The position numbers were made by a program, and so were the translations under genes. Below the pieces are notes generated by a model. That model saw nothing but the letters and a program-made list of their open reading frames with translations, did not search any database and had not been told where the DNA came from. Below are positions 18,348 to 62,330 of a stretch of 64,000 nucleotides of DNA, piece after piece. Source of the stretch: an uncultured bacterium (GTDB taxonomy: Bacteria > Omnitrophota > Omnitrophia > Omnitrophales > Aquincolibacteriaceae). The stretch is taken from assembly GCA_964508905.1 (NCBI GenBank), contig CAZDVO010000001.1, positions 3,977 through 67,976 of the forward strand. The letters run 5' to 3'. How positions within the stretch are numbered: position 1 is the stretch's first letter; each line of letters opens with the position of its first letter.

Positions 18348-18469
18348 CCCCCGTTAGAGACAGAAAACGTTTTGAGAACGCCTCTGTTTAAAATTAATGG
18401 TTAAAGTTATTTCTTTATTCTCCCGCAATTGCGGGCCGAGACGTCTTCCTCCCCCGGTCTCTAACGGGG
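18348..18469. repeat. Intergenic element bounded by a 13-bp inverted repeat, CCCCCGTTAGAGAC ... GTCTCTAACGGGG (copy 1 of 3), between trmD and rplS
   Basis: A perfect 13-bp inverted repeat flanks about 95 bp of unrelated interior that contains a small internal palindrome, CCCGCAATTGCGGG. The right arm supplies the trmD stop codon (CCC CGT TAG). The left arm, read on the minus strand, supplies the GGGGGAA Shine-Dalgarno five or six nt before the rplS ATG. Confidence 0.6.
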
Positions 18470-19192
18470 TGATGATTGCAACAGATCCGGCCGCTTCTGG
18501 CGCGTGACCCGCTCGGCTTCATGATGACGCCAAAGGTCCACTTCTTTATGATCCCCGGAGAACAGCACCTCCGGGACTTTCCAACCCCGGTACTCCCGGG
18601 GCCTCGTATAATGAGGATGCTCAAGCATCCCCGTTTGAAAACTCTCGTGCTCGATCGACGCCGCGTTCCCGAGCACTCCCGGGACGAGCCGCGTCACCGC
18701 TTCGATCAGACACAACGCGGGAGCTTCCCCGCCCATCGTAATAAAATCACCGACCGAGATCTCCTGGTCGACCAGATGATCCTTCACGCGCTGGTCCACG
18801 CCTTCATAATGCCCCGCGATCAGGACCAGGTGCTTCTTTTTCGCGAGTTTCGCCGCGAGCTTCTGGCTCATCGGCTCCCCCTGGGGATCCATCAACACCA
18901 CCCAGGCTTTCTTTCCGACCTCTTCGACGCATTCAAAGAGAGGCTCGGGTTTCATCACCATCCCGGCCCCGCCTCCGAAGGGTTTATCGTCCGCGGTCTT
19001 ATGCCGGTCGTGCGTCCAATCCCGAAGATCATGCGTCCGGATCCGGACCCGCTTCTTCGCCTGGGCCTTTTCCAGAAGCGATTCCCCAAGCGGGCTTTTA
19101 AAGAACTCCGGAAAAAGCGTTACGATATCGATCGTAAGCCCCGTTAGAGATCCCCGCCTTTGTTGCTTCCCATTCTTTGAAACAGCTGGCAT
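18461..19192 (-). CDS. trmD: tRNA (guanine37-N1)-methyltransferase
   Basis: ...IDIVTLFPEFF...DDKPFGGGAGMVMKPEP...LIAGHYEGVDQRV...GDFITMGGEAPALCLIEAV... The N-terminus is uncertain. The ATG at 19192 lies inside inverted-repeat element 2 and would add a 20-aa extension. Homology points to a start near LTIDIV, but no canonical start codon is present there. Confidence 0.8.
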   Translation of the reverse strand: MPAVSKNGKQQRRGSLTGLTIDIVTLFPEFFKSPLGESLLEKAQAKKRVRIRTHDLRDWTHDRHKTADDKPFGGGAGMVMKPEPLFECVEEVGKKAWVVLMDPQGEPMSQKLAAKLAKKKHLVLIAGHYEGVDQRVKDHLVDQEISVGDFITMGGEAPALCLIEAVTRLVPGVLGNAASIEHESFQTGMLEHPHYTRPREYRGWKVPEVLFSGDHKEVDLWRHHEAERVTRQKRPDLLQSSPR

Positions 19193-19242
19193 GGCTCCTT
19201 CTCCCCACCAAACAACCTAAACCATGCTTATCTCTAACGGGG
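19139..19242. repeat. Intergenic element bounded by the inverted repeat CCCCGTTAGAGAT ... ATCTCTAACGGGG (copy 2 of 3), between rpsP and trmD
   Basis: A perfect 13-bp inverted repeat with about 77 bp of unrelated interior. The right arm is nested in a second small hairpin, CATGCTTA...TAAGCATG. The element occupies the position where rimM lies in the canonical rpsP-rimM-trmD-rplS operon. Confidence 0.6.
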
Positions 19243-19274
19243 TAAGCATGCGGACGCCCTCCGGCCTTTAGGCC

Positions 19275-19535
19275 TTAGGCGCTCTTCTTCGACGTTTTCT
19301 TCTTTTCACGACGGACCAGGCTCTTCAAAGCGACGCTCATCTGCGCGCCCTGCTTCACCCAATAATCCAGGCGATCCTGCTTCACGATGAACTTATCTTC
19401 TTTGGGAAGAGCATCGTAAAAACCGATCTCCTCGATAAAGCGCCCATCACGCGGCATCTTCGCGTCACTGACCACGATGCGCCACTGCGGACGGCCCTTA
19501 GTACCGACACGTTTCATTCTGATCTTGACTGCCAC
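19275..19535 (-). CDS. rpsP: 30S ribosomal protein S16
   Basis: MAVKIRMKRVGTKGRPQWRIVVSDAKMPRDGRFIEEIGFYDALP... Confidence 0.9.
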   Translation of the reverse strand: MAVKIRMKRVGTKGRPQWRIVVSDAKMPRDGRFIEEIGFYDALPKEDKFIVKQDRLDYWVKQGAQMSVALKSLVRREKKKTSKKSA

Positions 19536-22782: not shown

Positions 22783-22858
22783 GACGCGCAACGCACAACG
22801 CGCAACGTCTTGGCTTTAGCCCTTTCGTTGCGCGTTGAACGTTGACCGTTGCGCGGGA
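22783..22858. repeat. GCGCAACG/CGTTGCGC hairpin repeat (copy 2 of 4), between rpmE and prfA
   Basis: gacgcgcaacgcacaacgcgcaacg...cgttgcgcgttgaacgttgaccgttgcgcgggattatt. It ends with TTGCGCGGGATTATT directly abutting the rpmE stop codon, the same junction as copy 4 has with yidC. No U-tract follows, so it is not a classical intrinsic terminator. Confidence 0.55.
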
Positions 22859-23182
22859 TTATTTTCCCTGAGCTTTCACTTTATCGCGAAGGGCCTGAAG
22901 CTTTTCCTTGCGGGCTTCTTCGGAGAACTTGAGTTTCACGGGCATCTTGGGAACGGCCTTGGTCGTTTTCTTGGTCTCGGCCACGCGGTCCTGGAACTTT
23001 TTCTTGAACCGGTCGATACGGCCGGCCGTATCGAGGATCTTCTGCTTGCCCGTATAGAACGGATGACAGACTGAGCAGATATCGACCTGAATGCTCGACA
23101 CCACGCTGCGGGTCTCGATCACGTTGCCGCACGCGCAACGGATCGTGGAAGGACCGTAATTGGGATGGATCTCTTTTTTCAT
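22859..23182 (-). CDS. rpmE: 50S ribosomal protein L31 with a Lys-rich C-terminal extension
   Basis: [48 protein letters not shown]... is L31. About 35 extra C-terminal residues (...[37 protein letters not shown]). Confidence 0.85.
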
Positions 23183-32947: not shown

Positions 32948-33685
32948 CTATCGTTTCACCGCGGAAGCGGAAAAGCTCCCCAGGATCTTGTCGACCTGGA
33001 TGCGTTCCCGGAAAAGCTCCTTCAATTTTCCGAACTGGCAATTATCGATATGAAGCCCTTCCACGTCCGGCAGGCTTCCGAGAATAGGCACTCCCGAGAG
33101 GTCGTGGATCACCTTGGGATTCGTGAGCTCGGAAAGAGAGTAATTGGTGACCGCGACCCGGTTAAAGATAATGCCGCGCACCTCAAGCCCCCGGATCATC
33201 GCCGCATCCACCGTCAAGAGCGTGTGGTTGATCGCGCCGAGGCCCGCGTAGGAAACGATCACGAGCGGCAGCCCCATATCACGGATGAGATTCGCGACGT
33301 AATAATCTTTTTTAAGAGGGACCATCAGCCCGCCGATCCCTTCGACGATCATGAAATCATAATGTTTCTGGAGCTGGCGATAACTCTTGAGGATGCCCTG
33401 GACATCGACTTCCTTTTTTTCAAGCATCGCCGCCACGTTCGGCGAAAGCGGGTTGCGAAAACGTGAGGGGCTTGAGAGGGGCGGGTATTCGTTCTCGGCG
33501 GCTTCCAGGAGAAAAGCCGCGTCCGTGGAGATCAGCCGTTCCTCGGTCCCGTGACAGCCGGTCGCGACGGGTTTCATGACCCCGACCTTCATCCCCCGTT
33601 CTCGGAGCACCAGCGCGAGGCCGGCGGAGATCACCGTTTTCCCGACATCCGTATCCGTCCCCGTAATAAAGATCCCGGCTTTCAT
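32948..33685 (-). CDS. bioD: Dethiobiotin synthetase
   Basis: MKAGIFITGTDTDVGKTVISAGLAL (P-loop) ...EGIGGLMVPL... The start is taken at the internal ATG (MKAGIF). Confidence 0.8.
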   Translation of the reverse strand: MKAGIFITGTDTDVGKTVISAGLALVLRERGMKVGVMKPVATGCHGTEERLISTDAAFLLEAAENEYPPLSSPSRFRNPLSPNVAAMLEKKEVDVQGILKSYRQLQKHYDFMIVEGIGGLMVPLKKDYYVANLIRDMGLPLVIVSYAGLGAINHTLLTVDAAMIRGLEVRGIIFNRVAVTNYSLSELTNPKVIHDLSGVPILGSLPDVEGLHIDNCQFGKLKELFRERIQVDKILGSFSASAVKR

Positions 33686-33785
33686 GGCTTCCTCTGGAGG
33701 CAGAATGAAAGATGGAGAATAGGGAATGGAGAAAAACAGGCTGCGCCATCCGCCATCCTCCATCCGCTGCCCATAACTTCCGTTT

Positions 33786-35234
33786 TCATTCCGTCACCTC
33801 TTGGATCGATTCGTAAGTGATCTCAAGCAACTGTTCCAACTGCCGTTCCGTCATCCCAAGCGGCGGCATCAACACGATCACCGGCCCGAGCGGCCGCAGG
33901 ATCGCGCCTTTTTTCCGCGCGCGTTCGATCACCTGAACGCCGATCTTCTCCTCGGGAGCGAACTCCGCTTTCGTTTTTTTGTCACGGACGAGTTCAATGC
34001 CTGTCATGAGCCCAACCCGGCGGATATCCCCCACGCAGGAAAGCGCGTGAAAGGATTCAAGCCTTTTGCCTAAAAGCGCGATCCGGGGCTGGAGCTTCTC
34101 GATCGTCCGGTCTTTCTTAAAAAGATCCAGCGTCGCCAACGCCGCCGCGCATGCCAACGGATTCGCCGTGTAAGTGTGCCCGTGGAAGAAGGTCTTGAAC
34201 TCTTCGTATCGGCCGAGAAAAGCCTCATACACCGCTTCGCTCGTAAGCGTCGCGGCCAGCGGCAGATAACCGCCCGTCAGGCCTTTGGCGACCGCCATAA
34301 TGTCCGGCACGACACCTTCGTGTTCCGCGGCGAACATCTTGCCCGTCCGCCCGAATCCCGTCGCGACCTCATCAAAAATGAGGAGCGTATTATACTTTCG
34401 CGTCAATTCCCTCGCACGGGAAATATAACCTTCCGGCTGGTCGATCATCCCCGCGGCCCCCTGCATCAGGGGTTCCATCACGAACGCGGCCAGCTCGTCC
34501 TGATTCTCGCGCAACACCTTCTCCATCGCGTCCAAGGATTCTCTCTTCACTTGTTCCGGATCGTCACCAGTCTCCCACCGGTAACGGTACGGCGACGGAA
34601 CGGCGAGCGTTTCAAAAAGAAGTGGCTTGTAGATCTGATGGAAAAGATCGATCCCGCCCATACTGACCGAGCCGATCGTGTCGCCGTGATAGGCGTTCGT
34701 GAGGCGGGCGAATTTCTTTTTCCGCGGTTGGCCTTTCTGCTGCCAATACTGGTACGCGATCTTCACCGCGATCTCCATCGCCTCGGACCCGGAATCGGAA
34801 TAAAAAACGCGGGTGAGACAATGCTTTTTGTCATCCTGAGGGTTTTTCCCGTCATGCTGAGCGAAGCGAAGCATCTCGCTCGGAGATTCTTCGGGCTTTG
34901 CCCTCAGAATGACGTCGCTGTTACCCGGCGCGATCGCGATCAATTGCTCGGAGAGCTCGATCGCTGTCGGGTGAGAAAGGCCGAGGAATGTCGTATGCGC
35001 GATCTTGCCGAGCTGTTTTTTAACGGCCTTATCGATCGCGGGAACCCGATGCCCGAACACATTGCACCAGAGGGACGACACCCCGTCCAGGTACCGCCGC
35101 CCGTCCGTATCGATCAGGTAACAGCCTTCCCCTTTTTCAATGACGGGAAAATCCTCTGCCTGCCAGTCCCGCATCTGCGTAAACGGATGCCAGATGTATT
35201 TTCTATCTTTCGCGACAAGTTCGTTGGTATTCAT
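33786..35234 (-). CDS. bioA: Adenosylmethionine-8-amino-7-oxononanoate aminotransferase, carrying an in-frame insert
   Basis: A class-III aminotransferase (...FYSDSGSEAMEIAVKIAYQYW...IFDEVATGFGRTGKMFA...). An insert of about 30 aa (SDVILRAKPEESPSEMLRFAQHDGKNPQDDKKHC) precedes the conserved RVFYSDSGS block. Confidence 0.85.
   Translation of the reverse strand: MNTNELVAKDRKYIWHPFTQMRDWQAEDFPVIEKGEGCYLIDTDGRRYLDGVSSLWCNVFGHRVPAIDKAVKKQLGKIAHTTFLGLSHPTAIELSEQLIAIAPGNSDVILRAKPEESPSEMLRFAQHDGKNPQDDKKHCLTRVFYSDSGSEAMEIAVKIAYQYWQQKGQPRKKKFARLTNAYHGDTIGSVSMGGIDLFHQIYKPLLFETLAVPSPYRYRWETGDDPEQVKRESLDAMEKVLRENQDELAAFVMEPLMQGAAGMIDQPEGYISRARELTRKYNTLLIFDEVATGFGRTGKMFAAEHEGVVPDIMAVAKGLTGGYLPLAATLTSEAVYEAFLGRYEEFKTFFHGHTYTANPLACAAALATLDLFKKDRTIEKLQPRIALLGKRLESFHALSCVGDIRRVGLMTGIELVRDKKTKAEFAPEEKIGVQVIERARKKGAILRPLGPVIVLMPPLGMTERQLEQLLEITYESIQEVTE
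34818..34920. repeat. In-frame palindromic insert inside bioA
   Basis: GTCATCCTGAGGG ... CCCTCAGAATGAC (13 bp, one mismatch) encloses GAGCGAAGCGAAGCATCTCGCTC with inner GAGCGA/TCGCTC arms. The insert encodes residues absent from BioA homologues. Confidence 0.5.
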
Positions 35235-35921: not shown

Positions 35922-36051
35922 TCTATTTTTTTATACCGTATCGGGTATAAAATTCATTGCTGACAATAAATATATACCCTATAAGGTATATATTTAAATT
36001 TAATATACCCTTTAGGGTATATATTAATATTTATTTGATTAAACTATACCC
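35922..36051. promoter_or_regulatory. Array of four 18-bp palindromic operators (TATACC-N6-GGTATA) upstream of hipB
   Basis: tataccgtatcgggtata (35922-35939), tataccctataaggtata (35963-35980), tataccctttagggtata (35993-36010) and tataccctttatggtata (36034-36051), with spacings of 41, 30 and 41 bp. This parallels the four TATCC-N8-GGATA HipB operators in E. coli hipBA. Confidence 0.65.
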
Positions 36052-36073
36052 TTTATGGTATAGTTTTGTTGCT

Positions 36074-36598: not shown

Positions 36599-37459
36599 AT
36601 GGACCCAAAATTTTTGAAAGCGCTATTCGGAATAAGCGAGCTTCCTACCATATCTTTCTCTTCAGAGGATATTCCGCTCAAAGCCCAGGATATGGCTGAT
36701 GCGAAGCTGTCCATTTCGGGTGTTCAGCCCAAACTTTCTCTTAAAATGGATAAACAACGGAAAGAGCTTGTGCTCGCTCCGACGGGCGGAGAATATATTT
36801 TCAAACCGCAAACGCCGGCGTTCCCGCATATTCCGGAAAATGAAAACTGCTGCATGGATATTGCGCAAACCTTTAACATTGAGGTGCCGCCTCATTGCCT
36901 TCTCAAGCTTAAGGACGGAACTTTGGGCTATGTCGTGAAACGATTTGACCGCCAAGGCGAAGAGAAGGTCCATCAAGAGGATTTTTATCAAATTCTAGAA
37001 AAAACCGATAAATATCTCGGCTCATTGGAGCAGATCGGAAAAAAATTAAAAGAGATCTCGGCTGTTCCCGGCCTTGATATTCAACTGTTCTTCGAACGCG
37101 TCGTGTTAAACTTCCTTCTTGGAAATGGAGACGCTCATTTTAAGAACTTTTCCGTTTCTCATCGCGCGGAGGGGGTCCGTCTCTCGCCGGCCTACGATAT
37201 CGTTTCCTCAAAACTGGTTCTTCCAAAAGAAGAAGATTCGGCGCTGACTCTCAACGGCAAAAAGAACCGTATCACCCGTAACGATCTTGATGCGTTTGCC
37301 GAGAACTTAAAGATCCCGCAAAAGATCCGCTATGAAAAATTCGCGGGCAAAACAGACTTGATCGAGCAATTCATCCGGTCAAGCCAGCTACCGCAAGATT
37401 TCAAATCACGATTTGTCGAGATCGTCCTCTCCCGCTACGAACGCCTTAAGATCGCTTAA
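36599..37459 (+). CDS. hipT: HipT-like Ser/Thr kinase toxin (HipA kinase core lacking N-subdomain 1)
   Basis: SISGVQPKLS; catalytic motif GNGDAHFKNFS; ...SPAYDIVSS... The ATG lies 2 nt after the hipS stop, in a different frame. Confidence 0.75.
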   Translation: MDPKFLKALFGISELPTISFSSEDIPLKAQDMADAKLSISGVQPKLSLKMDKQRKELVLAPTGGEYIFKPQTPAFPHIPENENCCMDIAQTFNIEVPPHCLLKLKDGTLGYVVKRFDRQGEEKVHQEDFYQILEKTDKYLGSLEQIGKKLKEISAVPGLDIQLFFERVVLNFLLGNGDAHFKNFSVSHRAEGVRLSPAYDIVSSKLVLPKEEDSALTLNGKKNRITRNDLDAFAENLKIPQKIRYEKFAGKTDLIEQFIRSSQLPQDFKSRFVEIVLSRYERLKIA

Positions 37460-37965: not shown

Positions 37966-39108
37966 TTACGCAATCGCGCGGAAGGCCTGGAGAAGGGCCT
38001 GGATGTCTTCGGCGGTATGCGCGGCAGAGACGGTGATGCGGAGGCGGGCTTTGCCCTTGGGCACGGTCGGGTAGCGGACCGCCGGGATAAAGAGCCCCTG
38101 GCCGAGCAGTTTTTCGAACGCCTCCATCGCTTTCTTTTCATCGCCCAGGATCACGGGGAGCACCGCGGATCCGGGCTGCGCCAGATGAAAGCCGAGCTTC
38201 GTGAGCCCCTGATACACTTCCCGGATATTCGCCCAGAGCCTTTCGATCAGGGCGGGGTCTTCTTCGATCACGCAAAAAGCTTCGCGCGCCGTTTCGCAGA
38301 GGACCGGAGGCAGGGCCGTCGCGAAAATGAACGGCCGGGCAAAATTCATCAGAAGATCGATCAAGCTTTGATCCGCGGCGACAAAGCCGCCCAATCCCCC
38401 GATCGCCTTGGAGAGCGTGCCCATGATCAGATCAATGCCTTCGGAGTAGCTTGAAGTCGCACCGGGGCTTCCCTTGGGAAAGACGCCCGTGCCGTGCGCG
38501 TCGTCCACGACAAGCAACGCCCCGTACTTTGCTTTGATCCGGATCAGTTCGTTCAGGTCCGCGCGGTCCCCGTCCATCCCGAACACGTTCTCCGTCACTA
38601 CGAGCTTACGAGGGGCCTTTGATCTTTTAAGGATCTCCTCGCATCGGGCGTAATGCTTGTGAGGGAAAACGCGGATCTCGGCGCCGGAAAGCCGCGCGCC
38701 GTCGATCAGGGACGCGTGGCAGAGCTTATCCATGACGATGACGTCGCCTTTCCCCGCGAAAGAAGAAAGGATGCCGAGATTGGCGAGGAATCCGGACCCG
38801 AACACGAGCGCGCTGTCCTTGTGTTTGAAGGCGGCGATCTTTTTTTCAAGGGACGCGTGCGCCTCCGTGGTCCCGGAGATCAGCCGCGCCGAACGCGCGC
38901 CGATCCCGTACTGGTCGATCGCCTTGTGCGCCGCCGCGATCAACCGCGGATGCCGGCTCATGCCCAGATAGTCGTTGCCGCAGAAGAGGATCATCTTCCG
39001 GCCTTCAAAAACGGCGCGGGTGCCCTCGTGTTCTTCCAGAACGCGGAGGGAGCGGTAGAGATGCTTTTCCTTGAGCCTCTCTAATTCTTTTTTTACATCG
39101 TTCATCAT
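37966..39108 (-). CDS. bioF: 8-amino-7-oxononanoate synthase (class-II PLP acyltransferase; a Kbl-type alternative is not excluded)
   Basis: ...GSGFLANLGILSS...DKLCHASLIDGARLS...GTLSKAIGGLGGFVAAD... The biotin-operon context favours BioF. Confidence 0.7.
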   Translation of the reverse strand: MMNDVKKELERLKEKHLYRSLRVLEEHEGTRAVFEGRKMILFCGNDYLGMSRHPRLIAAAHKAIDQYGIGARSARLISGTTEAHASLEKKIAAFKHKDSALVFGSGFLANLGILSSFAGKGDVIVMDKLCHASLIDGARLSGAEIRVFPHKHYARCEEILKRSKAPRKLVVTENVFGMDGDRADLNELIRIKAKYGALLVVDDAHGTGVFPKGSPGATSSYSEGIDLIMGTLSKAIGGLGGFVAADQSLIDLLMNFARPFIFATALPPVLCETAREAFCVIEEDPALIERLWANIREVYQGLTKLGFHLAQPGSAVLPVILGDEKKAMEAFEKLLGQGLFIPAVRYPTVPKGKARLRITVSAAHTAEDIQALLQAFRAIA

Positions 39109-39127
39109 GCCCGCCTCTTTAACTTTT

Positions 39128-39186
39128 CCGAACAGCGCAACGGAACAGCCGTTTCATTCATTGCGCGTTGCGCTTCGTTCGTTGAA
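39128..39186. repeat. GCGCAACG/CGTTGCGC hairpin repeat (copy 3 of 4), between fabF and bioF
   Basis: gaacagcgcaacggaacagccg...cattgcgcgttgcgcttcgttcgttgaac. Confidence 0.45.
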
Positions 39187-39204
39187 CTTCGAAAAGTTTG
39201 CTTT

Positions 39205-40410
39205 TCAAATTTTTCGAAGAAGCACGGCCGCGACTTGCCCGCCGAATCCCATCGAAAGTTTTACCGCGCTTGCCGCCTTCCGGGCCCGCGCTTTCCCGGG
39301 GACATAGTCAAGATCGCACGCGGGATCGCTTTTTTCAAGCCCCACGGTCGGAGGCAGGAATCCTTCGTGGATCCCCAACAGCGTCGCGATGATCTCCACC
39401 GCCCCCGTCGCTCCGAGCATATGCCCGGTCGCGCCCTTGGTCGAACTCATCGGAATGCGGTACGCCGCCGCGCCAAGGGCTTCCTTGATCTCCCGGGTCT
39501 CGTAGAGATCGCCATATTTTGTCCCGGTCCCGTGTAAATGCAAGTAATCGATATCGCTCGGGCCGATCCCGGCCCGCTTCAGCAGAAGTTTCAGCGTGTA
39601 CGAAAGCGCGTGTTCTTCCGGATCAAAAATGATCGGGTGCTTGCTGTCCTGCCCGTAGGCGGATTCGACGATCTCGCCGTAGATCCGCGCTCCCCGCGCC
39701 TTCGCGTTTTCCAGCGTCTCCAGAAAGACCACACCCGCGCCTTCACCGACCAGGAAACCGTCCCGGCGCGCGTCAAACGGGCGAAGGTCGCTTTTCGCGA
39801 GCGCTTTCATATTCTGGTATCCCGCGAGCATCAGGGAAGAAAGTGAAGCGTCGGTCGCTCCCGCCAGGCAATATTCGGCCTGCCCTTCGGAAACCATCCG
39901 GAAACCCTGGATGATCGCGACCGTCCCCGTCGTGCACGCGGACGCGTAACATTGAGCCGGCCCCCGGACATTCATCCGGCGGGCGATCCACTGGGCCGCG
40001 AGATTGGGTAGCGCGCTCGTGTAGAGCCGGGCGCCCAGGATCGCGCTCGGGGACTTCCGAAAACGTTCGGCAAGTTGGCTCAGGCTGTGAACGCCGCCTT
40101 TGCTCGAGCTGACGGAAAGCGCGACCGCGTAAGGATCGACTTTGCTCAGGTCCATCCCCGCGTCCGCGACGGCTTGTTCGGCGGCGGCCACGGCGTATTG
40201 AATGAAGGGATCGAGCTTCTGCGTCGCGTTTGGGCGCGGGTTAAAATCCCTCACGGGAAAAACGGGCGGAAACCGGTAGCCTTCAGGCGTCACGTATTCC
40301 CCGGACGCTTTGCCGCAAACCCCTTGTTTGAGATTCTCGCGGAACGCGTCCAGAGTATTTCCGATCGGCGAAAGCACTCCCATCCCTGTCACAACCACGC
40401 GTCTTTTCAC
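39205..40410 (-). CDS. fabF: 3-oxoacyl-ACP synthase II (FabF-like KAS), located inside the biotin operon
   Basis: VKRRVVVTGMGVLSPIGNT...CTTG...HGTGT...GHMLGATGAVE... is full-length KAS-II-like. The start is set at the GTG (VKRRVVV) that abuts the arm of inverted-repeat element 3. The in-frame ATG at 40482 lies inside that element and would add 24 aa. Confidence 0.8.
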   Translation of the reverse strand: MKRRVVVTGMGVLSPIGNTLDAFRENLKQGVCGKASGEYVTPEGYRFPPVFPVRDFNPRPNATQKLDPFIQYAVAAAEQAVADAGMDLSKVDPYAVALSVSSSKGGVHSLSQLAERFRKSPSAILGARLYTSALPNLAAQWIARRMNVRGPAQCYASACTTGTVAIIQGFRMVSEGQAEYCLAGATDASLSSLMLAGYQNMKALAKSDLRPFDARRDGFLVGEGAGVVFLETLENAKARGARIYGEIVESAYGQDSKHPIIFDPEEHALSYTLKLLLKRAGIGPSDIDYLHLHGTGTKYGDLYETREIKEALGAAAYRIPMSSTKGATGHMLGATGAVEIIATLLGIHEGFLPPTVGLEKSDPACDLDYVPGKARARKAASAVKLSMGFGGQVAAVLLRKI

Positions 40411-40530
40411 CCTGTTAGAGATGGGAAGCGCTTCTGAAGCGCTTCCGTTAAATCCTCTTTTTTCTTGTCCGGAATTTTTCATGTTTTCCGCCTAAAAAAT
40501 CTCGCCTCGTTTTACGAATCTCTAACGGGG
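40410..40530. repeat. Intergenic element bounded by the inverted repeat CCCTGTTAGAGAT ... ATCTCTAACGGGG (copy 3 of 3), between fabG and fabF
   Basis: The 13-bp inverted repeat has one mismatch. About 95 bp of unrelated interior includes the hairpin GGAAGCGCTTC-TGAA-GCGCTTCC. This spot is where acpP lies in canonical fab clusters. Confidence 0.55.
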
Positions 40531-40551
40531 CCGATCCTTTTCAAAAGGTGG

Positions 40552-41283
40552 CTACGAGAAAGGACGGGATTCAAAATGAAAGACTTGCCCCGTCACCTGA
40601 CGCATCTGGTCAGAGGCGAGGTAAACAAGAAAGCCGGCCACTTCCTCCGGATCGGAAAAAGCCTTCAGCGGACTGTCTTCCAGGTTCCGGTCGAGAACGG
40701 CCTGCGGCACCTTCCCGGTCATCGCGGACCGCATAAACCCTGGGTTCACGGCATTCACGAGGATCTTTTTGCGCCCGAGCTCCCGGGCGAGCGTTTTGGT
40801 CATCGCGATCAGGCCGCCTTTGGCCGCGGCATAATTCGCGGCGCCGGCAAGTCCGGAGAGTCCCGCGCGGCTCACGAGCGTGAATACTTTGCTCGGTTTC
40901 CGTCGCATCAGAAGCGGCAGTAGTTTCTGCGTCAGATAGAACGGGGCTTTGAGGTCGACCGCGAGGACCCGGTCCCAATCCTGTTCAGACATTTTTTCAA
41001 GCAGGCTGTCGGCCGTGGCCGCGGCGTTGTGAATGAGAACGTCCAGTTGTTCCGTTCCCCGCGAGAAGGCGTCGACAAAAGCATCGATCGCCCGGCTGTC
41101 GCCCAGATCGAGCGCGACGCCGCGGGCGCCGGCCCTTTCCAGTTCGGCGGCAAGGTCGGAGGCCCGGTGATACGTGAAAAAAACGCGGGCACCTTGCGCG
41201 AGGGCTTGAGTCACGAACGCGCGGCCCAAGGCACTGGTGCCGCCCGTGATCAGAATGGTTTTATCTTTGAGGGAAAGTTCCAA
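40552..41283 (-). CDS. fabG: 3-oxoacyl-ACP reductase (SDR family, FabG-like)
   Basis: TILITGGTSALGRAF (Rossmann fold) ...NAA...S...YAAAKGG... (SDR catalytic YxxxK). Confidence 0.75.
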   Translation of the reverse strand: MELSLKDKTILITGGTSALGRAFVTQALAQGARVFFTYHRASDLAAELERAGARGVALDLGDSRAIDAFVDAFSRGTEQLDVLIHNAAATADSLLEKMSEQDWDRVLAVDLKAPFYLTQKLLPLLMRRKPSKVFTLVSRAGLSGLAGAANYAAAKGGLIAMTKTLARELGRKKILVNAVNPGFMRSAMTGKVPQAVLDRNLEDSPLKAFSDPEEVAGFLVYLASDQMRQVTGQVFHFESRPFS

Positions 41284-41285
41284 GG

Positions 41286-42314
41286 CTAGGAGGTCTTACC
41301 GCAGCCCGAGGCGCAGCCGCAGTGTTCTTGAGGCAGGATCAGAGGGAACCCGCTCCTCTCCAGCATACCGAGATCTTCCTGAAGAGGATTACCGCTAGTC
41401 GTGAGATAACCGCCGACCACAAATCCGTTCACCCCGCCGCGCAGGGCTTTTTCCTGGAAATAAACGCCGAGATTCAGCTCCCGCCCGCCCGCGAGTTTGA
41501 TATTGGCTTTCGGATGGATCAGGCGATAGATCGCGATCGTCTTAACGACGTCTTCCGGATCGATCGCCGGCCGGCCCTGAAGCGGTGTCCCCGGCCTCGG
41601 ATTGAGGATATTGACCGGCAGACAATGAAGATGGTACGGCTTGAGCTCGAACGCCAGTTTCACCCGATCGGCCGTGGTCTCCCCCATCCCGAAGATCCCG
41701 CCGGAGCAAACTTCCACGTCGTTCGCTTTCAAAAAATTCAGTGTTTCCATCCGCTCGTCGTAGGTATGCGTGGAAACGATCTCGGGATAGAACTCCCGCG
41801 AACATTGGAGATTGTGATTAAAGCGCCGCATGCCGGCTTCCCGGAGCTTCTGGATCTGTTCCGCGGTCAGATTCCCAAGCGATCCGTCGAGGCGAAGCTT
41901 TGTTTCCTTGGAAAGCAGTTGGAAGGTCGCGAGCACCTGTTTGAATTCAGCGTCGTTCAGCGTTTCACCGCTTGTGACCACACAGAAACTTTGAACCCCA
42001 TTGGCCTCACAGGCCTTCGCTTGGGTCAACACTTCGTCGGGTTGCATCAGCGGGTAGCGTTTCACACCCGTTTTGTAATGCGCGGACTGGGAACAAAAAC
42101 CGCAGTCCTCAGAACACAGGTAACTTTTGGCGTTCACGAGAGAACAAAGATCGGGAGTGGAGGAGCGGTAGTGAAGCGTGATCTCATGCGCCGCGTCAAG
42201 CAACTGATCGATCATGACGGGATCTCGAAGTTCGGCGAGGCGCATTGCTTCGTCAAAAGTGATCTCGCCGCCCGCGAGGACGCGGGACTTGAGCTCTTGA
42301 ATGAAGGCTTTCAT
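41286..42314 (-). CDS. bioB: Biotin synthase (radical SAM)
   Basis: CSEDCGFCSQS (CxxxCxxC) ...GNLTAEQIQKLREAGMRRFNHNLQ...CSGGIFGMGET... Confidence 0.8.
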   Translation of the reverse strand: MKAFIQELKSRVLAGGEITFDEAMRLAELRDPVMIDQLLDAAHEITLHYRSSTPDLCSLVNAKSYLCSEDCGFCSQSAHYKTGVKRYPLMQPDEVLTQAKACEANGVQSFCVVTSGETLNDAEFKQVLATFQLLSKETKLRLDGSLGNLTAEQIQKLREAGMRRFNHNLQCSREFYPEIVSTHTYDERMETLNFLKANDVEVCSGGIFGMGETTADRVKLAFELKPYHLHCLPVNILNPRPGTPLQGRPAIDPEDVVKTIAIYRLIHPKANIKLAGGRELNLGVYFQEKALRGGVNGFVVGGYLTTSGNPLQEDLGMLERSGFPLILPQEHCGCASGCGKTS

Positions 42315-42335
42315 ATCCGTCGAACGAGCGCCGAA

Positions 42336-43562
42336 CTAGGCCTGCGCGAAGACTTCGCGCGCCACGATCCCGACGACGCCCAACGCGACCGCATTCTCAC
42401 CAAAAGCGGACGGAATGATCTTCACCTGGGTCGCGGCTTCTTCAACGGACCATTCTTTCACGGTGTTCTTGATGGAGTCGAGGAGCGGCGCGCCGCAATC
42501 TTCGATCCCGCCGCCGATCACGACCACTTCGGGGTTCAATAGATTCACGATAAAAGCGATCTTTTTGCCGAGTTCCTGGCCGGCGTGTTCCGCGACCTTG
42601 ACCGCGACGGCGTCTTTTTCGCGGATCGCTTTGACGATCTCTTTAAAACCGAGCTTGTTAAGATCGCCGCCCACCATCTCTTTGAGAACGGTCGGCTCGC
42701 CTTTTTCGATCTTCTCCCGGGCATGACGGACCATCCCGATATCCATTTCCCAACGGCCGAGCTGGGTGGCCATCTTGAAGGAAACATCCTTGCTGGCGTG
42801 CGCGCTGGTGATCCCGAGCTCCCCGGCGGCGCCGTTAGCCCCGCGGTAGATCTCTTCATTGATCAGAATGCCGCAGCCAACCCCGGAGAACATATAGACC
42901 ATGTTCCGAACGTCGCGGTCAAGGCCCAGCCATTTTTCACCGAGCACCGCCGCGTTCGCGTCATTCTCGACGATGGTGGGAATGTTGAGCCGTTTTTCGA
43001 AGGTGTCCTTGATCGAGGAACATACGGAAATGTCCTTATCGCCCAGGCTTTGCGGCCAGCGGATCGTGCGTCCGCGCTCATCGATGATCCCGGGGATGCC
43101 GACGCCGAGGCCGACGATCTTGGATTTGTCGATCTCCGCCTTCTCAATGATCTCCGCGGCCAGGTCCACCATCTGCTGGATCACCTTTTCGGAGTTCTCC
43201 GGGGCCCGTTCACGCTTGATCTCGCTGATCACGTTGATCTCGAGATCCACGAGCACCGCGACAATGCTCATCATGTTAAGACCGACACCGACGATATAGC
43301 CGGCTTTGGGGTTTAGCTCCACAAGCACGGGCTTACGGCCGCCGGTCGATTCGTCCAATTCCCCTTCGATCACGAGGCCTTTTTTGATGTAATGGCCCAC
43401 ATAATTGGAAACCGTCACGATGTTCAGCTCGGTAAGCTTGGAAATATCGGTCCGGGAGATGGGGCCGTTCTTGCGGACGACCTCAAGGATGGCCAGATTC
43501 TTTCTTTCCTTGTCCGTCAGCGTCCGATCTTTAAGCATTTGCTTGATGATCATGGGAGTCAA
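42336..43562 (-). CDS. ROK-family transcriptional regulator (NagC/XylR-like: N-terminal wHTH plus sugar-kinase fold)
   Basis: N-terminal wHTH (...RTDISKLTELNIVTVSNYV...), followed by a ROK domain with ...LGVGIPGIID... and C/H-rich motifs. Confidence 0.7.
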   Translation of the reverse strand: MTPMIIKQMLKDRTLTDKERKNLAILEVVRKNGPISRTDISKLTELNIVTVSNYVGHYIKKGLVIEGELDESTGGRKPVLVELNPKAGYIVGVGLNMMSIVAVLVDLEINVISEIKRERAPENSEKVIQQMVDLAAEIIEKAEIDKSKIVGLGVGIPGIIDERGRTIRWPQSLGDKDISVCSSIKDTFEKRLNIPTIVENDANAAVLGEKWLGLDRDVRNMVYMFSGVGCGILINEEIYRGANGAAGELGITSAHASKDVSFKMATQLGRWEMDIGMVRHAREKIEKGEPTVLKEMVGGDLNKLGFKEIVKAIREKDAVAVKVAEHAGQELGKKIAFIVNLLNPEVVVIGGGIEDCGAPLLDSIKNTVKEWSVEEAATQVKIIPSAFGENAVALGVVGIVAREVFAQA

Positions 43563-51797: not shown

Positions 51798-51831
51798 AAA
51801 ACCTCCGGATGTTTCACGTGAAACGTTAGAA

Positions 51832-52014: not shown

Positions 52015-52030
52015 CGTTTCACGTGAAACA
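52015..52030. promoter_or_regulatory. parS centromere-like site 2
   Basis: CGTTTCACGTGAAACA, 183 bp from site 1, in the 470-bp parA-mnmG gap. Confidence 0.8.
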
Positions 52031-52288
52031 TCAGGCGCTTTGTCTGTTTTATGGAATATTTCAAATTGCAGATAATTTTCATAAGTCATTTCATATCTTG
52101 GCATTGTTATTTGCGTAATATGGTAGCTTCCATTGCTATCGTAAATGAATACATATGGTTAGATTAAATGACAGTCGCACGAAAATGGGGTCCGTTTGCT
52201 TTACCTAAGAGTCGAATCGTAAGACAAAGCTCCTTTGCCTTAACGAAGCGCGGGGGCAGCTGTTTTCAAGAAAAGCCAAGGCTTGTAT

Positions 52289-54112: not shown

Positions 54113-54125
54113 TTGCGCTCAACGG

Positions 54126-54180
54126 GCGACGCGCGACGCGCAACGATCCGTTCTTCGTTGAGCGGTGCGTGTTGCGCGGG
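54126..54180. repeat. GCGCAACG/CGTTGCGC hairpin repeat (copy 4 of 4), between yidC and mnmG
   Basis: gcgacgcgcgacgcgcaacg...cgttgagcggtgcgtgttgcgcgggattatt, ending in TTGCGCGGGATTATT directly before the yidC stop codon. Copy 2 has the same junction with rpmE. Confidence 0.55.
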
Positions 54181-54181
54181 A

Positions 54182-55807
54182 TTATTGATCTTCGTGATGC
54201 AGGACGATCACAATTCGGTTAATGAACGTCTGCTGTACGATCGAGAAAAGATTTTGTAGCGTCCAGTAAAGCGTCAGCCCCGAGGGCATGTTGTAGCAGA
54301 TAAAACCAAAAAAGATCGGCATGATGTTCATGATCATCTGCTGTTCCGGGCTCGAGCCGGGTTGCGCGGGCATCAGCTTCTGGTACCAGACCTGTGAGAT
54401 CGCCATCGTAAGCGGCAGAACATTCAACGCGTTCCAGTTAAGGACCGGGACGGTGAACGGCAGCATCATAAGCTGGTCCGGCGCGGAGAGGTCCTTGATC
54501 CAGCCAATGAACGGCGCTCCGTGAAGCTCGATCGCTTCCGGAAGCAATTTGAACATCGCGATGAAAACAGGGATCTGGATCAACATGGGAAGACAGCCCA
54601 TCATCGGATTCACTTTGTTCCGCCGGTAAAGCTGCATCAGCTCCTGCTGGGATTTCGCCGGATCTTTTTTGTGCCGCTCCTGGATCGCTTTCATCTTGGG
54701 CGCGAGGATCTGCATCTTTTTCATGCTCGCGTAGCTCAGATGCGTCAGCGGTGCGAACAGCAGCTTGATCAAAAGGGTGAGGATGACCAGCGCCCAGCCG
54801 AAGTTGTTCGTGTATTGATTCAAAAATTTCAAGACCATCAGAATGCCGGTCTTGAATAATCCGAAAAACCCGCGGGAAAAAACCTCTTCGAATCCGGCCC
54901 CGAAACTTTTGAGCGCCTCATACCGCTGAGGCCCCACGTAGACCAAAAAGTTTCTTTCTCCTTCGCCTCCCGCCGGCACCGTAAGCGGCTCCAGCGCGAT
55001 CTCACCCCAAAGGTGCTGCGCATCGGCCTTCGCGCTCCCGCCCAGGATCTTGGCGTCCGGTTTGACGAGTAGCGCGAAATACTTTTTGATGAACCCGACC
55101 CAACGGGTCTCTTCGGGAAAGGCGTATCCTTTTTTCTTGATGTGCGCCAGGTCCTTGGTCTGAACCTTGTCGGTATACGCGACGCCGTCGTAATAGCCGT
55201 AGTCTTTCTGATAATCCTTCTCATGGTTCATGCCGTAGTTCAAAGTAACGGGAAAATGCCGTTCGCGAGCGGAAAGATTTTTAATGCGCACCACAAGGTC
55301 CATCGCGGTCTTGTCGTCGCGCAACACATACGTCTTGGTGAGCCGGTATTCTCCGGGAAGTTCGTAGGCAAACTCAACGCTCGTGCCTCGGCGGGTCATC
55401 CTGAAGATCGTGTCCGCCAGATCCGCTTTTTCATGAAGTACGCTCACGCCGAAGATCCCGGACCGCTTCGGATCCCCTGAAAAAAATTCCGTCCGGGTGA
55501 ATTTCTGACGCCCTGGTTCTCCAAGAAAGGAAAGGCTTGAGATCGTTCCCCCCAAGGTCGAAAACTCGGCTTTGTAAAAAGCATTCTCAAAAAGCGCCAC
55601 GGCGGGGGCTGCTGCTTTTTCTAATATGGGTTCGTTCAGGATCTCCGCGGGGGGGAGGGGCTTTTCCTGCGGCTTGGCGACAGGAGCTACCGAAACCGAG
55701 GTTCCCTTTTTTTGATAAGCGTTCGGATAAAAATGTTGCACCACCATGGGGTAGAAGATCATGACGAGCGCGGCGAGAACCACTGCTTTAACGGTGTTTT
55801 TATCCAT
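54182..55807 (-). CDS. yidC: Membrane protein insertase YidC
   Basis: An N-terminal TM segment, a large periplasmic domain, and the conserved C-terminal 5-TM core (...GWALVILTLLIKLLFAPL...). Confidence 0.9.
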   Translation of the reverse strand: MDKNTVKAVVLAALVMIFYPMVVQHFYPNAYQKKGTSVSVAPVAKPQEKPLPPAEILNEPILEKAAAPAVALFENAFYKAEFSTLGGTISSLSFLGEPGRQKFTRTEFFSGDPKRSGIFGVSVLHEKADLADTIFRMTRRGTSVEFAYELPGEYRLTKTYVLRDDKTAMDLVVRIKNLSARERHFPVTLNYGMNHEKDYQKDYGYYDGVAYTDKVQTKDLAHIKKKGYAFPEETRWVGFIKKYFALLVKPDAKILGGSAKADAQHLWGEIALEPLTVPAGGEGERNFLVYVGPQRYEALKSFGAGFEEVFSRGFFGLFKTGILMVLKFLNQYTNNFGWALVILTLLIKLLFAPLTHLSYASMKKMQILAPKMKAIQERHKKDPAKSQQELMQLYRRNKVNPMMGCLPMLIQIPVFIAMFKLLPEAIELHGAPFIGWIKDLSAPDQLMMLPFTVPVLNWNALNVLPLTMAISQVWYQKLMPAQPGSSPEQQMIMNIMPIFFGFICYNMPSGLTLYWTLQNLFSIVQQTFINRIVIVLHHEDQ

Positions 55808-56859: not shown

Positions 56860-58218
56860 ATGGTTTCTCCTTCGTCCATACCGGCAGACCCCTCATTAAC
56901 GGACCTTTGGAAGAAGATCTGCGCGATCCTCTCGAGAGAATTGAGCGAACGTTCCTTCAAGACCTGGTTTGAGCCTGTTTTGGTTCTTTCTGTCTCGCAA
57001 GACGCGCTCACGCTCGGCGTGCCAGACGCCTACTACGGAAAATGGCTTGAGGACCATTACCAAAATCTGGTGCTTTCTTCCGTAGAAGAAGTGCTCGGTC
57101 GCCCTCTCTCTGTTTCTTATCAAGTCGTTGAGCCGCCTAAGGTTACGCCTTCGACGCCCGTCACACAGCCTTCTTCTCCTAGAGAAAAAGAAGAGGCTGC
57201 CGCGGGCTGGAATCAACGCTACACCTTTGATGATTTTGTGATCGGCCCCGGCAACCGTTTTGCGCATGCGGCCGCGGTCGCGGTCAGCGAATCGCCGGCC
57301 AAACAATACAATCCTCTCTTTATTTATGGCCCGACCGGACTTGGAAAGACCCATCTTCTTCAGTCTATCGCTCATGAGATGAAGCGTCGGCATCCTGAGT
57401 TTAAGATCCTGTATATATCCAGTGAAAAGTTCACGAATCAGTTGATCACCGCGATCCAGACAAAATCGACTCCCCAATTCCGCGCAAAATATCGCACGCT
57501 CGATCTTTTGCTGATAGACGATGTCCATTTTATCGCGGAAAAAGACTCAACCCAGGAGGAATTCTTCAATACCTTCAATGCTCTTTATGATGCACACAAG
57601 CAGATCGTGGTCACTAGCGATCGTCCTCCGCGAGAAATTCCCGGCCTGGAAGAGCGCCTTGTTTCGCGTTTCGGCTGGGGCCTTGTCACGGATATTCAGC
57701 CTCCTGATTTTGAAACGCGCGTGGCTATTTTGAAGAAGAAAATGGAGCGGGAAACCGTTGTGGTGCCTGATGATGTGGCGTATTTCATCGCGGACAAGAT
57801 CAAATCGAATATTCGAGAGTTGGAGGGGGCGCTCATCCGGGTCGTCGCTTTTTGTTCCCTCACAAACTCCAAGATCGATGTCCGCCTGGCGCAGGAAATA
57901 TTGAAGGATGCTTTTAAGGAAGAGGCTCAAAAATTCACAATAGAAGGGATACAAAAAGTGGTTGCGGATTTCTTTAATGTGAAGGTTTCGGACCTCCGCG
58001 CCAAAAGACGTTCTTCCTCGATCGTCCGCCCTCGGCAGATCGCGATGTTCCTTGTTCGGGAGCTTACTTCTCACTCACTTCCAGAGATCGGGGAATATTT
58101 TGGTGGAAAAGACCACACCACCGTTCTCCATTCTTACAACAAAATCTTGGCAGAAAGAGAAAAAGATGTTGCTATGAGGGGTTTATTGGATAAGCTTATT
58201 GGATTGTTAAAAAAATAG
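56860..58218 (+). CDS. dnaA: Chromosomal replication initiator DnaA
   Basis: ...GPTGLGKTHLLQSIAHE... (Walker A), ...LLIDDVHFIAEKDSTQEEFFNTFNAL..., and the C-terminal DNA-binding domain ...RPRQIAMFLVRELTSHSLPEIGEYFGGKDHTTVLHS... Confidence 0.95.
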   Translation: MVSPSSIPADPSLTDLWKKICAILSRELSERSFKTWFEPVLVLSVSQDALTLGVPDAYYGKWLEDHYQNLVLSSVEEVLGRPLSVSYQVVEPPKVTPSTPVTQPSSPREKEEAAAGWNQRYTFDDFVIGPGNRFAHAAAVAVSESPAKQYNPLFIYGPTGLGKTHLLQSIAHEMKRRHPEFKILYISSEKFTNQLITAIQTKSTPQFRAKYRTLDLLLIDDVHFIAEKDSTQEEFFNTFNALYDAHKQIVVTSDRPPREIPGLEERLVSRFGWGLVTDIQPPDFETRVAILKKKMERETVVVPDDVAYFIADKIKSNIRELEGALIRVVAFCSLTNSKIDVRLAQEILKDAFKEEAQKFTIEGIQKVVADFFNVKVSDLRAKRRSSSIVRPRQIAMFLVRELTSHSLPEIGEYFGGKDHTTVLHSYNKILAEREKDVAMRGLLDKLIGLLKK

Positions 58219-58354
58219 AGGGGATTTCCCCAAGAACTTCTTTTTCTATCCCTTGTTTTCTTAGAGAGTTATAGACGAAATTCACATAAACACAGCGCTT
58301 ATTACTAAGATTGCTATTTTTTAAAATATAGAATAAAAGCATAAGGAGTGATCT

Positions 58355-59455
58355 ATGGAAATAAAAGTCCAAAAAAGCGAGTTGTTAAAAAAAATCACTC
58401 TGGGTGTTAATGTCGCGGCTTCAAAACCAAGCACGCTCCCGATTCTTAACAATCTTCTTCTGGAAACACAAAAAGACGGAAAGATGAAGGTGGTAGCTAC
58501 CGATATGGAGGTGGGGATCTCAACCTTAATTCCTGTGGAAGTGGTTCAAGCTGGGAGCATCACGGTTCCAGCGAGGAAGTTTTTTGATATCGTAAAAGAG
58601 CTTCCTGAAGGAGTGGTTGAAATAACAGTGACCAAAAACAATACTGTGAGTATCAAAGCCGGGAAATCCTTTTTTAAAATCATGGGGTTAGATAAAGAGG
58701 AATACCCTAAACTTCCCGATTTTTCTCTAAGTGATTCTATTGAAGTAGAACAAGCGGTTATTAAAGAAAGTCTTTCCCTCACCTCTTTTGCTATATCCCA
58801 CGATGAAACACGTTATGTTTTAAACGGAGTCCTTCTTTCTATTCACGGGCAAACAACAAAATTTGTTGCGACGGATGGGAGAAGGCTTGCTTTTTATAAA
58901 AAAGAGATCAAACAAAAAAACAATAAAAATATTGATATGATTATTCCCGCAAAAACCGTGCATGAACTCCTAAAACTTCTAAATTGGGAAGGGGTTGTAA
59001 AGATCGTTCACACACAAAATAAAGTTCTCTTTTCTTTCGATGACACCTATCTTACTTCAAGTCTTATAGAAGGGAATTTTCCTAATTATGAACAAGTGAT
59101 CCCTAAGGAAGAAAAAACACAAGTGCTCGCGAACCGGGAGGAGTTTTTACAAGCAGTTCGACGCGCGGCGCTACTTACATCTCCTGAGGCGCCAGCCTTA
59201 AAATTTGATTTTATAAAAAATAAGATCCTGGTTTCCGCGAAAACCCCGAACATGGGAGAAGCGAAAGAAGAGCTTCCCTCGGAGTTTAAAGGAGGGGAGA
59301 TCACGATCGGATTTAACCCCGGGTATTTTTTAGATGTTCTAAAAAATCTTTCCGATGAGATGGTGAGCATCTCATTAACGGAAGCGGATAAGCCGGGGCT
59401 TGTGAAGGGGCGGGATGGTTATCTTTACGTGATCATGCCCATGCAGCTTAATTAG
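58355..59455 (+). CDS. dnaN: DNA polymerase III beta subunit (sliding clamp)
   Basis: MEIKVQKSELLKKITLGVNVAAS... A 366-aa three-domain clamp positioned after dnaA. Confidence 0.9.
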   Translation: MEIKVQKSELLKKITLGVNVAASKPSTLPILNNLLLETQKDGKMKVVATDMEVGISTLIPVEVVQAGSITVPARKFFDIVKELPEGVVEITVTKNNTVSIKAGKSFFKIMGLDKEEYPKLPDFSLSDSIEVEQAVIKESLSLTSFAISHDETRYVLNGVLLSIHGQTTKFVATDGRRLAFYKKEIKQKNNKNIDMIIPAKTVHELLKLLNWEGVVKIVHTQNKVLFSFDDTYLTSSLIEGNFPNYEQVIPKEEKTQVLANREEFLQAVRRAALLTSPEAPALKFDFIKNKILVSAKTPNMGEAKEELPSEFKGGEITIGFNPGYFLDVLKNLSDEMVSISLTEADKPGLVKGRDGYLYVIMPMQLN

Positions 59456-59488
59456 AAAAGAAAAAGGACGATAATAGAACGGTTCTTC

Positions 59489-62330
<2,842 letters not shown>

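Follow-up and report, generated by a model that had tools for sequence, protein, structure and literature searches.

A probable miniature transposon at the translation starts of a ketosynthase gene and trmD in an uncultured Omnitrophota bacterium

The DNA analysed here is a 64,000-nucleotide stretch (hereafter the window) of contig CAZDVO010000001.1 from an uncultured bacterium of the Omnitrophota (GCA_964508905.1). At positions 40410–40530, an inverted-repeat element of 121 nt separates a fabG-like gene of the short-chain dehydrogenase/reductase (SDR) family from a fabF-like ketosynthase gene of the β-ketoacyl-acyl carrier protein synthase (KAS) II type. A first-pass annotation had correctly recognized the element as a real repeat, and had expected acpP in its place. 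The locus raises the questions of what the element is, whether a gene is missing there, and where translation of the genes beside it begins. Our analysis strongly favors the element being a non-autonomous DNA transposon, i.e., a miniature inverted-repeat transposable element (MITE), that sits on gene starts and explains the 5′ ends of both the KAS gene and trmD. This mobile nature, with a 4-nt target-site duplication and a naturally occurring empty allele, had escaped the first-pass annotation.

Terminal repeats, target-site duplication and an empty allele

The window holds three copies of the element, all on the minus strand. Copy 1 (121 nt, 18349–18469) lies between trmD and rplS, copy 2 (104 nt, 19139–19242) lies between rpsP and trmD, directly after the ATGCTTA of trmD, and copy 3 (40410–40530) is the one between SDR and KAS. 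The arms of copy 3, CCCTGTTAGAGAT (40410–40422) and ATCTCTAACGGGG (40518–40530), are 13 nt each, complementary at 12 of 13 positions and 95 nt apart; in mRNA sense, the 5′ terminal inverted repeat reads CCCCGTTAGAGAT and the 3′ one ATCTCTAACAGGG, with a single mismatch, A instead of G. The resulting CAGGG variant recurs in two loci elsewhere (L060 and L114), both also on start codons. That the ribosomal-operon copies share these arms is borne out: with 0–1 mismatch the motif is present at six sites in the window, each time as part of a facing pair (18350/18468, 19140/19241 and 40411/40529), and in all three copies the arms are complementary at 12–13 of 13 positions. When up to two mismatches are allowed, the window has 17 arm matches versus 6.4 ± 2.5 in shuffled sequences, none of 100 shuffles reaching 17. 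The interiors of the three copies cannot be aligned to one another. The arm is read as I-S-N-R in KAS and as S-L-T-G in trmD, in line with the earlier statement that the frame differs between the two genes and that conservation acts at the nucleotide rather than the protein level.

To place these copies in a family, one genome per species was scanned for two exact arms 72–102 nt apart. At least 119 stretches with exact arm pairs were retrieved from the species-representative genomes, versus about one by chance according to our estimate (22 fixed bases, 31 spacings, 596 Gb). Arms in the listed loci nearly always occur as facing pairs, and several copies can occur within single metagenome-assembled genomes. 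Judged by record titles, the carriers include Omnitrophota, Saccharibacteria and other Patescibacteria, Planctomycetota, Elusimicrobiota, Deltaproteobacteria, Nitrospirae, Clostridia, Ignavibacteria and others.

Directly flanking the 13-nt arms, identical 4-nt direct repeats are present in 71 of 120 copies, versus 12.1 expected by permutation (standard deviation 3.0, maximum 26 in 5000 permutations). Identity extends to 5 nt in only two copies, and inverted 4-nt matches occur in only three, all of them palindromes. A flank repeat so far above permutation indicates a 4-bp target-site duplication. Its consensus is TNNA (TTTA, TAAA, TTCA, TGAA, TTGA, TCAA and TTAA), with CTTG, CAAG and CGCG as minor forms.

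A natural empty site completes the case for mobility. Locus L125 (ENA ERZ761564), whose RpsP is identical and whose DNA matches the window at about 96%, is missing precisely the 104 nt of copy 2 together with one CTTA; its sequence is GGAGGGCGTCCGC ATG CTT ACG ATC GAT. Copy 2 is thus polymorphic. In the window, the duplication, TAAG on the forward strand and CTTA in mRNA sense, is present both on the gene-body side of copy 2 (19135–19138) and beside the native ATG of trmD (19243–19246). The family thereby shows the hallmarks of a MITE: terminal inverted repeats, a duplication of fixed length, dispersed copies (three in 64 kb) with a precise empty site, and a size of 91–140 nt, too short to encode a transposase and well below the upper bound of about 300–800 bp for MITEs. 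A family element comprises 13-bp terminal inverted repeats, CCCCGTTAGAGAY ... RTCTCTAACGGGG, around a poorly conserved interior of about 80–115 nt that often holds a subterminal GC hairpin, and would be mobilized by a transposase acting in trans through 4-nt staggered cuts at YNNR sites, mostly TNNA.

Although interiors are seldom alike across the family, two types stand out. Type A (24 copies) consists of arm, YRGG, a GC-rich hairpin and CCGT, and includes copy 3, whose hairpin GGAAGCGCTTC/GAAGCGCTTCC lies at 40424–40446. The hairpin covaries across the 24 copies (level 3, 11 A-T, 11 T-A and 2 C-G; level 4, 12 A-T and 10 C-G), and type A shows an orientation bias of 16:3 relative to co-directional neighbors. 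Type B (12 copies by motif; BLAST clusters 20 interiors together) has a conserved interior with a third, internal arm copy, and its length plus duplication comes to 114 or 117 nt. A minimal element of two arms and a loop of about 6 nt (NPVREPCFSNGV) lies in frame in a heptosyltransferase-like open reading frame (ORF) at L078 2081–2110.

Candidates for the mobilizing machinery were also considered. An all-against-all ORF comparison of the 119 loci yielded no shared transposase. Y1 (IS200-like, associated with repetitive extragenic palindromes) transposase-like ORFs lie near elements at L115 3535–4233, L047 4923–5594 and L104 2078–2743, the element in L104 overlapping the 3′ end of the ORF. A Y1 mobilizer does not match a structure of terminal repeats plus a duplication, and its proximity in all three loci is probably coincidental. 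Long arm pairs with equal flanks, taken as candidates for an autonomous element, were rejected since they enclose host genes: heptosyltransferase-like genes in L078 and, in L117, where the flanks were not compared, what we read from the sequence as a GspF-like ORF with pseudopilin genes after it. All 114 arms in viral contigs stood alone, a number at chance level, and blastn against plasmids and phages gave no match.

Searches for a described counterpart were likewise negative. The window has no Rfam match at gathering score and only noise at E ≤ 10; scans of translated element copies against Pfam and NCBIfam returned nothing, NCBIfam having no hits at E ≤ 1. A full-text literature search with the arm sequence found unrelated primers only, and a search on MITEs in the carrier phyla found nothing relevant. 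Elements of this kind are known; this particular family appears to be undescribed, as neither an Rfam model nor a paper with the sequence was found. The window copies showed neither a sigma-70-like promoter nor an intrinsic terminator.

Start sites of trmD and the ketosynthase gene

The consequences of insertion are clearest in trmD. Removal of copy 2 and one CTTA restores a Shine-Dalgarno (SD) sequence GGAGGG, a 7-nt spacing and ATG CTT ACG ATC GAT ATC GTA (MLTIDIV), which is the sequence of L125, and the restored start coincides with the start of solved TrmD structures. In the occupied allele, the native ATG (19249–19247), with its SD GGAGGG at 19262–19257, heads a 10-codon upstream ORF (uORF; 19217–19249, minus strand) that reads ATG CTT ACC CCG TTA GAG ATA AGC ATG GTT TAG and ends inside the element. 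Beyond copy 2, no ATG, GTG or TTG occurs for 177 nt. The ATG inside the element (19190–19192), preceded by GGGGAGAAGGAG (19206–19195), is indeed the only canonical start of the trmD ORF, as proposed earlier; homology to TrmD begins at residue 18–22 of the ORF that it opens, and gene callers on five other contigs also give a 243-aa TrmD product. Because no usable start follows copy 2, TrmD is most likely translated from ATG 19192, judging from the sequence. The product would be MPAVSKNGKQQRRGSLTG followed by LTIDIV, i.e., 17 new residues in place of the initiator Met, while the native SD-ATG would now drive the uORF. In the predicted fold, ATG 19192 pairs with the segment covered by the uORF, so that translational coupling between uORF and TrmD is possible. 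Copy 1, at the other end of the gene, supplies the trmD stop through the TAG of its arm (18463–18461), with the rplS ATG (18340) 8 nt beyond the element. As a side observation, rimM is absent between rpsP and trmD (19242–19275), and the native spacer in the empty allele of L125 is about 25 nt.

The setting of copy 3 differs from what the names fabG and fabF had suggested. On the minus strand, the order is bioB (42314–41286), SDR (41283–40552), the element (40530–40410), KAS (to 39205) and bioF (39108–37966), forming an operon ROK-bioB-SDR-KAS-bioF. Relatives keep this order with an SDR–KAS spacer of 45–83 nt and without acpP, and no acyl carrier protein motif occurs in the window. The expectation of acpP at the element site was therefore wrong, and the neighboring bioB and bioF rule out a fab cluster (fabG-acpP-fabF). 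The ROK-bioB-SDR-KAS (401 aa)-bioF arrangement is conserved in Omnitrophota (L138–L140); the corresponding regions of the window are 32948–35234 and 37966–43562, and bioA- and bioD-like ORFs lie close by. A possible role of KAS and SDR is synthesis of the pimeloyl precursor of biotin. The SDR–KAS spacer of the closest relative (L138 2418–2500) contains a CCCCG...CGGGG pattern with weak resemblance to the left interior of copy 3, and may be a decayed relic of an older insertion.

The ancestral KAS start can be read from the relatives. Among the 120 closest homologues listed, mainly from Omnitrophota, most are 400–405 aa and the commonest length is 401 aa; six of nine retrieved homologues start with MKRRVVVTG. 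In relatives with the same operon (L138, with 92% protein identity; L139 and L140, 77%), the start DNA is ...CATGAAAAGACGC (ATG AAA AGA), encoding MKRRVVV. One homologue, P0002, has a 22-residue extension without any arm-encoded residue, apparently the outcome of a gene-calling choice.

In the window, the element ends in ...AACAGGG and the flank starts with TGAAAAGACGC. The GTG that the first-pass annotation had placed next to the element is correctly located at the ancestral start position (40408–40410, minus strand), yet it overlaps the element rather than abutting it, its first G being the last base of the arm and the TG coming from the flank; the ORF that it opens encodes 401 aa. The in-frame ATG reported inside the element is confirmed as well (40482–40480, minus strand), 24 codons upstream of the GTG, and an SD-like AGGCGGA at 40493–40487 makes it a candidate new start. 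Homology to solved FabF structures starts at residue 25–27 of the extended KAS, which is the GTG position. An AAGGA at 40535–40539 (minus strand), 4 nt 5′ of the element, is probably the ancestral SD, as it aligns with the AAGGG/GGAAGGAG spacers of the relatives. The upstream flank reads AAGGATCGG, and an upstream copy of ATGAA is no longer there. We infer that copy 3 inserted at the TGAA of an ancestral KAS start, A|TGAA-AAGACGC. The terminal G of the element turns the downstream half into G+TGAA and so rebuilds a GTG at the ancestral position; the suggestion of a non-canonical start directly after the arm thus does not hold for KAS. The upstream ATGAA would have been lost since, leaving the ancestral SD 4 nt before the element, and KAS would be translated either from ATG 40482, with 24 additional residues including the arm-encoded I-S-N-R, or from the junction GTG.

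Taken together, KAS and trmD now probably begin translation at new start sites. The idea that the elements donate N-terminal extensions is nearly forced for trmD and plausible for KAS. Relatives start KAS at MKRRVVV and trmD at M-L-T-IDIV, a pattern that had been put forward as favoring non-translation of the element; however, since the insertion separated trmD from its native ATG, the native starts of relatives are no proof that the element goes untranslated. N-terminal tags of comparable length are present in solved structures of TrmD and FabF, and in one case the tag 'RGSHMAS' (9sdv) aligns with the element-encoded 'RGSLTGL'. That such tagged proteins crystallize normally makes extensions of this size plausible.

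Family-wide fit and rival readings

Across the family, copies fit the borders and frames of genes in several ways. An in-frame junction GTG occurs in 14 of 58 downstream genes, and about nine keep the original start (ATG, TTG or GTG followed by AA or AG) in the 5′ flank, sometimes with a visible SD. Internal in-frame ATGs are found in 10 of 14 start-codon copies versus 41 of 228 other orientations (Fisher p = 4e-5), several of them with good SDs, such as GGAG (L013), AAGGAG (L060) and AAGGAGG (L114); in L060 and L114, which belong to the same subfamily, an SD-ATGAAT module abuts the arm. At the other border, 28 of 80 upstream genes take their stop from the insertion, half of them (14) at the TAG of the arm and half (14) in the duplication (TAA-A or TGA-A). 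Eight copies lie in frame in long ORFs (L044, L090, L049, L091, L101, L002, L077 and L093), where they read F-T-P-L-E...S-L-T-G-F-T, and in L044 a stop-free frame spans the whole 8-kb locus.

Two individual loci deserve separate mention. In L013 (1327–1447), the original ATG is retained and opens a uORF whose TGA stop overlaps the internal ATG (ATGA), a classic translational-coupling layout. In L117 (5367–6602), the leader peptide of the pseudopilin genes ends in the arm-encoded R-S-L-T-G before FTLIELI, the element sitting on the TTTA of the Gly-Phe-Thr prepilin cleavage motif.

A broader and more tentative proposal, which we regard as possible though far from secure, is that this is an undescribed cross-phylum MITE family whose ends are adapted to very compact genomes, such that it colonizes gene starts, gene ends and reading frames, even that of the essential trmD, without killing the host. 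On such a proposal, the terminal G would rebuild GTG on A|TGAN targets, the duplication would preserve TAA and TGA stops, and the arm would give TAG in one frame and be open in the other two. Some subfamilies would further have lengths divisible by three (type B, 114/117 nt with the duplication) or would carry their own outward SD-ATG through the arm (L060 and L114).

Where KAS translation begins is the point on which a different answer has the most to recommend it. KAS may still start at the junction GTG, without any extension, if the element folds via its 13-bp stem and brings the retained SD beside the GTG, a reading to which we assign a substantial but minority likelihood. The predicted RNA fold of the element indeed closes with the arm stem (−42.7 kcal/mol, z = −3.5), the ancestral SD AAGGA has been kept just 5′ of the element, and the last 3 bp over the GTG are destabilized by the A mismatch in the 3′ arm, a variant found again in L060 and L114. 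Moreover, four junction-GTG copies have no internal in-frame start, so that the GTG or a later codon must serve there, and phage T4 genes 25 and 38 offer precedents of a hairpin between SD and start codon. Yet the first G of the junction GTG is itself paired in the stem, 10 of the 14 comparable copies carry or have acquired internal in-frame ATGs, and the mechanism is impossible for trmD, where no start follows the arm. On the sequence, we lean slightly toward ATG 40482 as the KAS start. The intact native SD-ATG of trmD would also suit a reading in which the element is skipped during expression, by ribosomal bypass between the duplicated CTTA or TGAA codons or by RNA excision at the stem, restoring native N-termini. 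The duplication would then provide identical take-off and landing sequences around a stable hairpin, as in T4 gene 60 and the mitochondrial 'byp' elements. However, no stop follows right after the take-off codon, the gap is 104–121 nt, element lengths show none of the constraint that would be needed, and the internal SD-ATGs are simpler; skipping is very improbable.

The nature of the element itself leaves less room for doubt. A conserved, immobile structured RNA in the operon transcript, such as an RNase III site, an mRNA stabilizer or a regulatory leader, could explain the location of copies in transcribed operon spacers, their stable folds, the covarying subterminal hairpin and the 16:3 orientation bias of type A. 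It does not explain the 4-nt direct duplications, the precise empty allele, unrelated neighbors, insertion in both orientations, copies within ORFs and unalignable interiors, nor would one expect the absence of any Rfam match even at E ≤ 10; we consider it unlikely in the extreme, although not quite so unlikely as skipping, while RNA-level side effects of a MITE are possible. The least probable of all the readings is an integron attC site or a site-specific invertible switch (inverton), to which the imperfect palindrome, the 57–141 nt scale, the variable center, the GTTAGAG/CTCTAAC boxes and the occurrence of the same repeats at several loci would point. The boxes run GTTAGAG ... CTCTAAC on both strands, the reverse of attC (RYYYAAC 5′, GTTRRRY 3′), and neither version fits the empty allele or the target-site duplications. 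The window gene map, as read by eye rather than by Pfam scan, shows no evident integrase or recombinase ORF; same-species contigs all show one interior orientation, and inversion would switch off essential genes.

The transposon reading and the extensions that follow from it have their own difficulties. Of the 120 copies, 49 have no intact duplication, and copies 1 and 3 of the window are among them. Neither the window nor the 119 loci, nor the viral, plasmid and phage collections, yielded a transposase or an autonomous element with these ends, the whole carrier genomes lying outside the search. As the scan demanded perfect arms, the identity of arms across phyla is partly an effect of collection. 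Outward-reading ATGs are not in excess family-wide (60 and 62 versus 52 ± 8 and 57 ± 8 in shuffles), so that the enrichment at start codons reflects surviving insertions or later evolution rather than the design of the element as a whole. Finally, the occupied contigs are all identical in their elements and therefore offer no evolutionary test of whether the extensions are translated: copy 3 is present and identical in five other same-species contigs, and no single-nucleotide polymorphisms were found within elements among these contigs.

Setting, significance and comparison with known systems

Other features of the window are recorded here for completeness. Within the biotin region (35966–36062 and 36599–37459), a pair of AT-rich palindromes (TATACCCTTTAGGGTATA) precedes a small ORF and a HipA_C-domain ORF and may represent a toxin-antitoxin operator. 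Two parS-like sites (TGTTTCACGTGAAAC) form an inverted pair at 51809–51824 and 52016–52031, between parA-like and mnmG-like ORFs, and dnaA-, dnaN- and gyrB-like ORFs follow at 56860–62330, all these names being given by reading of ORF N-termini; the region of the replication origin thus seems to lie within the window. A second small repeat family (CGTTGCGCG...GTTGCGCGGGATTATT) is present in direct and inverted copies at 313–388, 22825–22863 and 54116–54186.

The MITE assignment accounts at once for three unusual spacers in core operons and sets the logic of their annotation right: no acpP is missing, and the 5′ ends of KAS and trmD are chimeric. It also records a recent insertion in nature that separated an essential gene from its start codon, with rescue by signals inside the transposon. 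Common to Omnitrophota, bacteria of the candidate phyla radiation, Planctomycetota and others, the family could serve as a marker of gene flow between uncultured lineages, and is a potential source of systematic start-codon mis-annotation in carrier genomes. What makes it of interest is how many phyla it reaches and how well it fits start codons, stop codons and reading frames.

The closest parallels are known bacterial MITEs. Correia/NEMIS elements of Neisseria and ERIC elements of enterobacteria are about 100–150 nt long, with terminal inverted repeats, a short duplication, no ORF and many copies (PMC10969869; PMC2649163). Bacterial MITEs lie mostly in transcribed spacers, where long hairpins can alter the expression of neighbors (PMC10969869; PMC2649163). 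The window family resembles them in size, terminal repeats, duplication, lack of an ORF of its own, location in transcribed spacers and hairpin folds. It differs from them in its 13-bp ends CCCCGTTAGAGAY, in a duplication of 4 nt (TNNA) rather than TA and in nearly unconserved interiors, as well as in its distribution over many phyla of mostly uncultured bacteria and its marked habit of occupying start and stop codons.

Rickettsia palindromic elements (RPE) are palindromic mobile repeats that are tolerated in frame in genes and translated as an extra peptide (PMC10969869). The window family shares with them a similar size and in-frame copies inside protein-coding ORFs, yet it has no sequence relation to them (no NCBIfam or Pfam match), occurs in other hosts, has clear duplications and lies mostly at gene borders. 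NCBIfam holds RPE domain models.

As to the mobilizing family, piggyBac has a 13-bp terminal inverted repeat beginning with CCC (CCCTAGAAAGATA) and a 4-bp TTAA duplication, and IS1380 ends begin with CC and generate 4–5-bp duplications. By analogy, a piggyBac/IS1380-type DDE transposon is a possible source of the transposase. The window family is like piggyBac in a 13-bp repeat starting with CCC and a 4-bp duplication at a T..A tetranucleotide; it is unlike it in that its target is TNNA, not strictly TTAA, and in that no transposase was found. With T4 gene 60, the mitochondrial 'byp' elements and T4 genes 25 and 38, the window elements share the principle of a structured insert between translation signals or in frame that the ribosome tolerates; unlike in T4 gene 60 and 'byp', an internal SD-ATG or a rebuilt GTG would suffice here.

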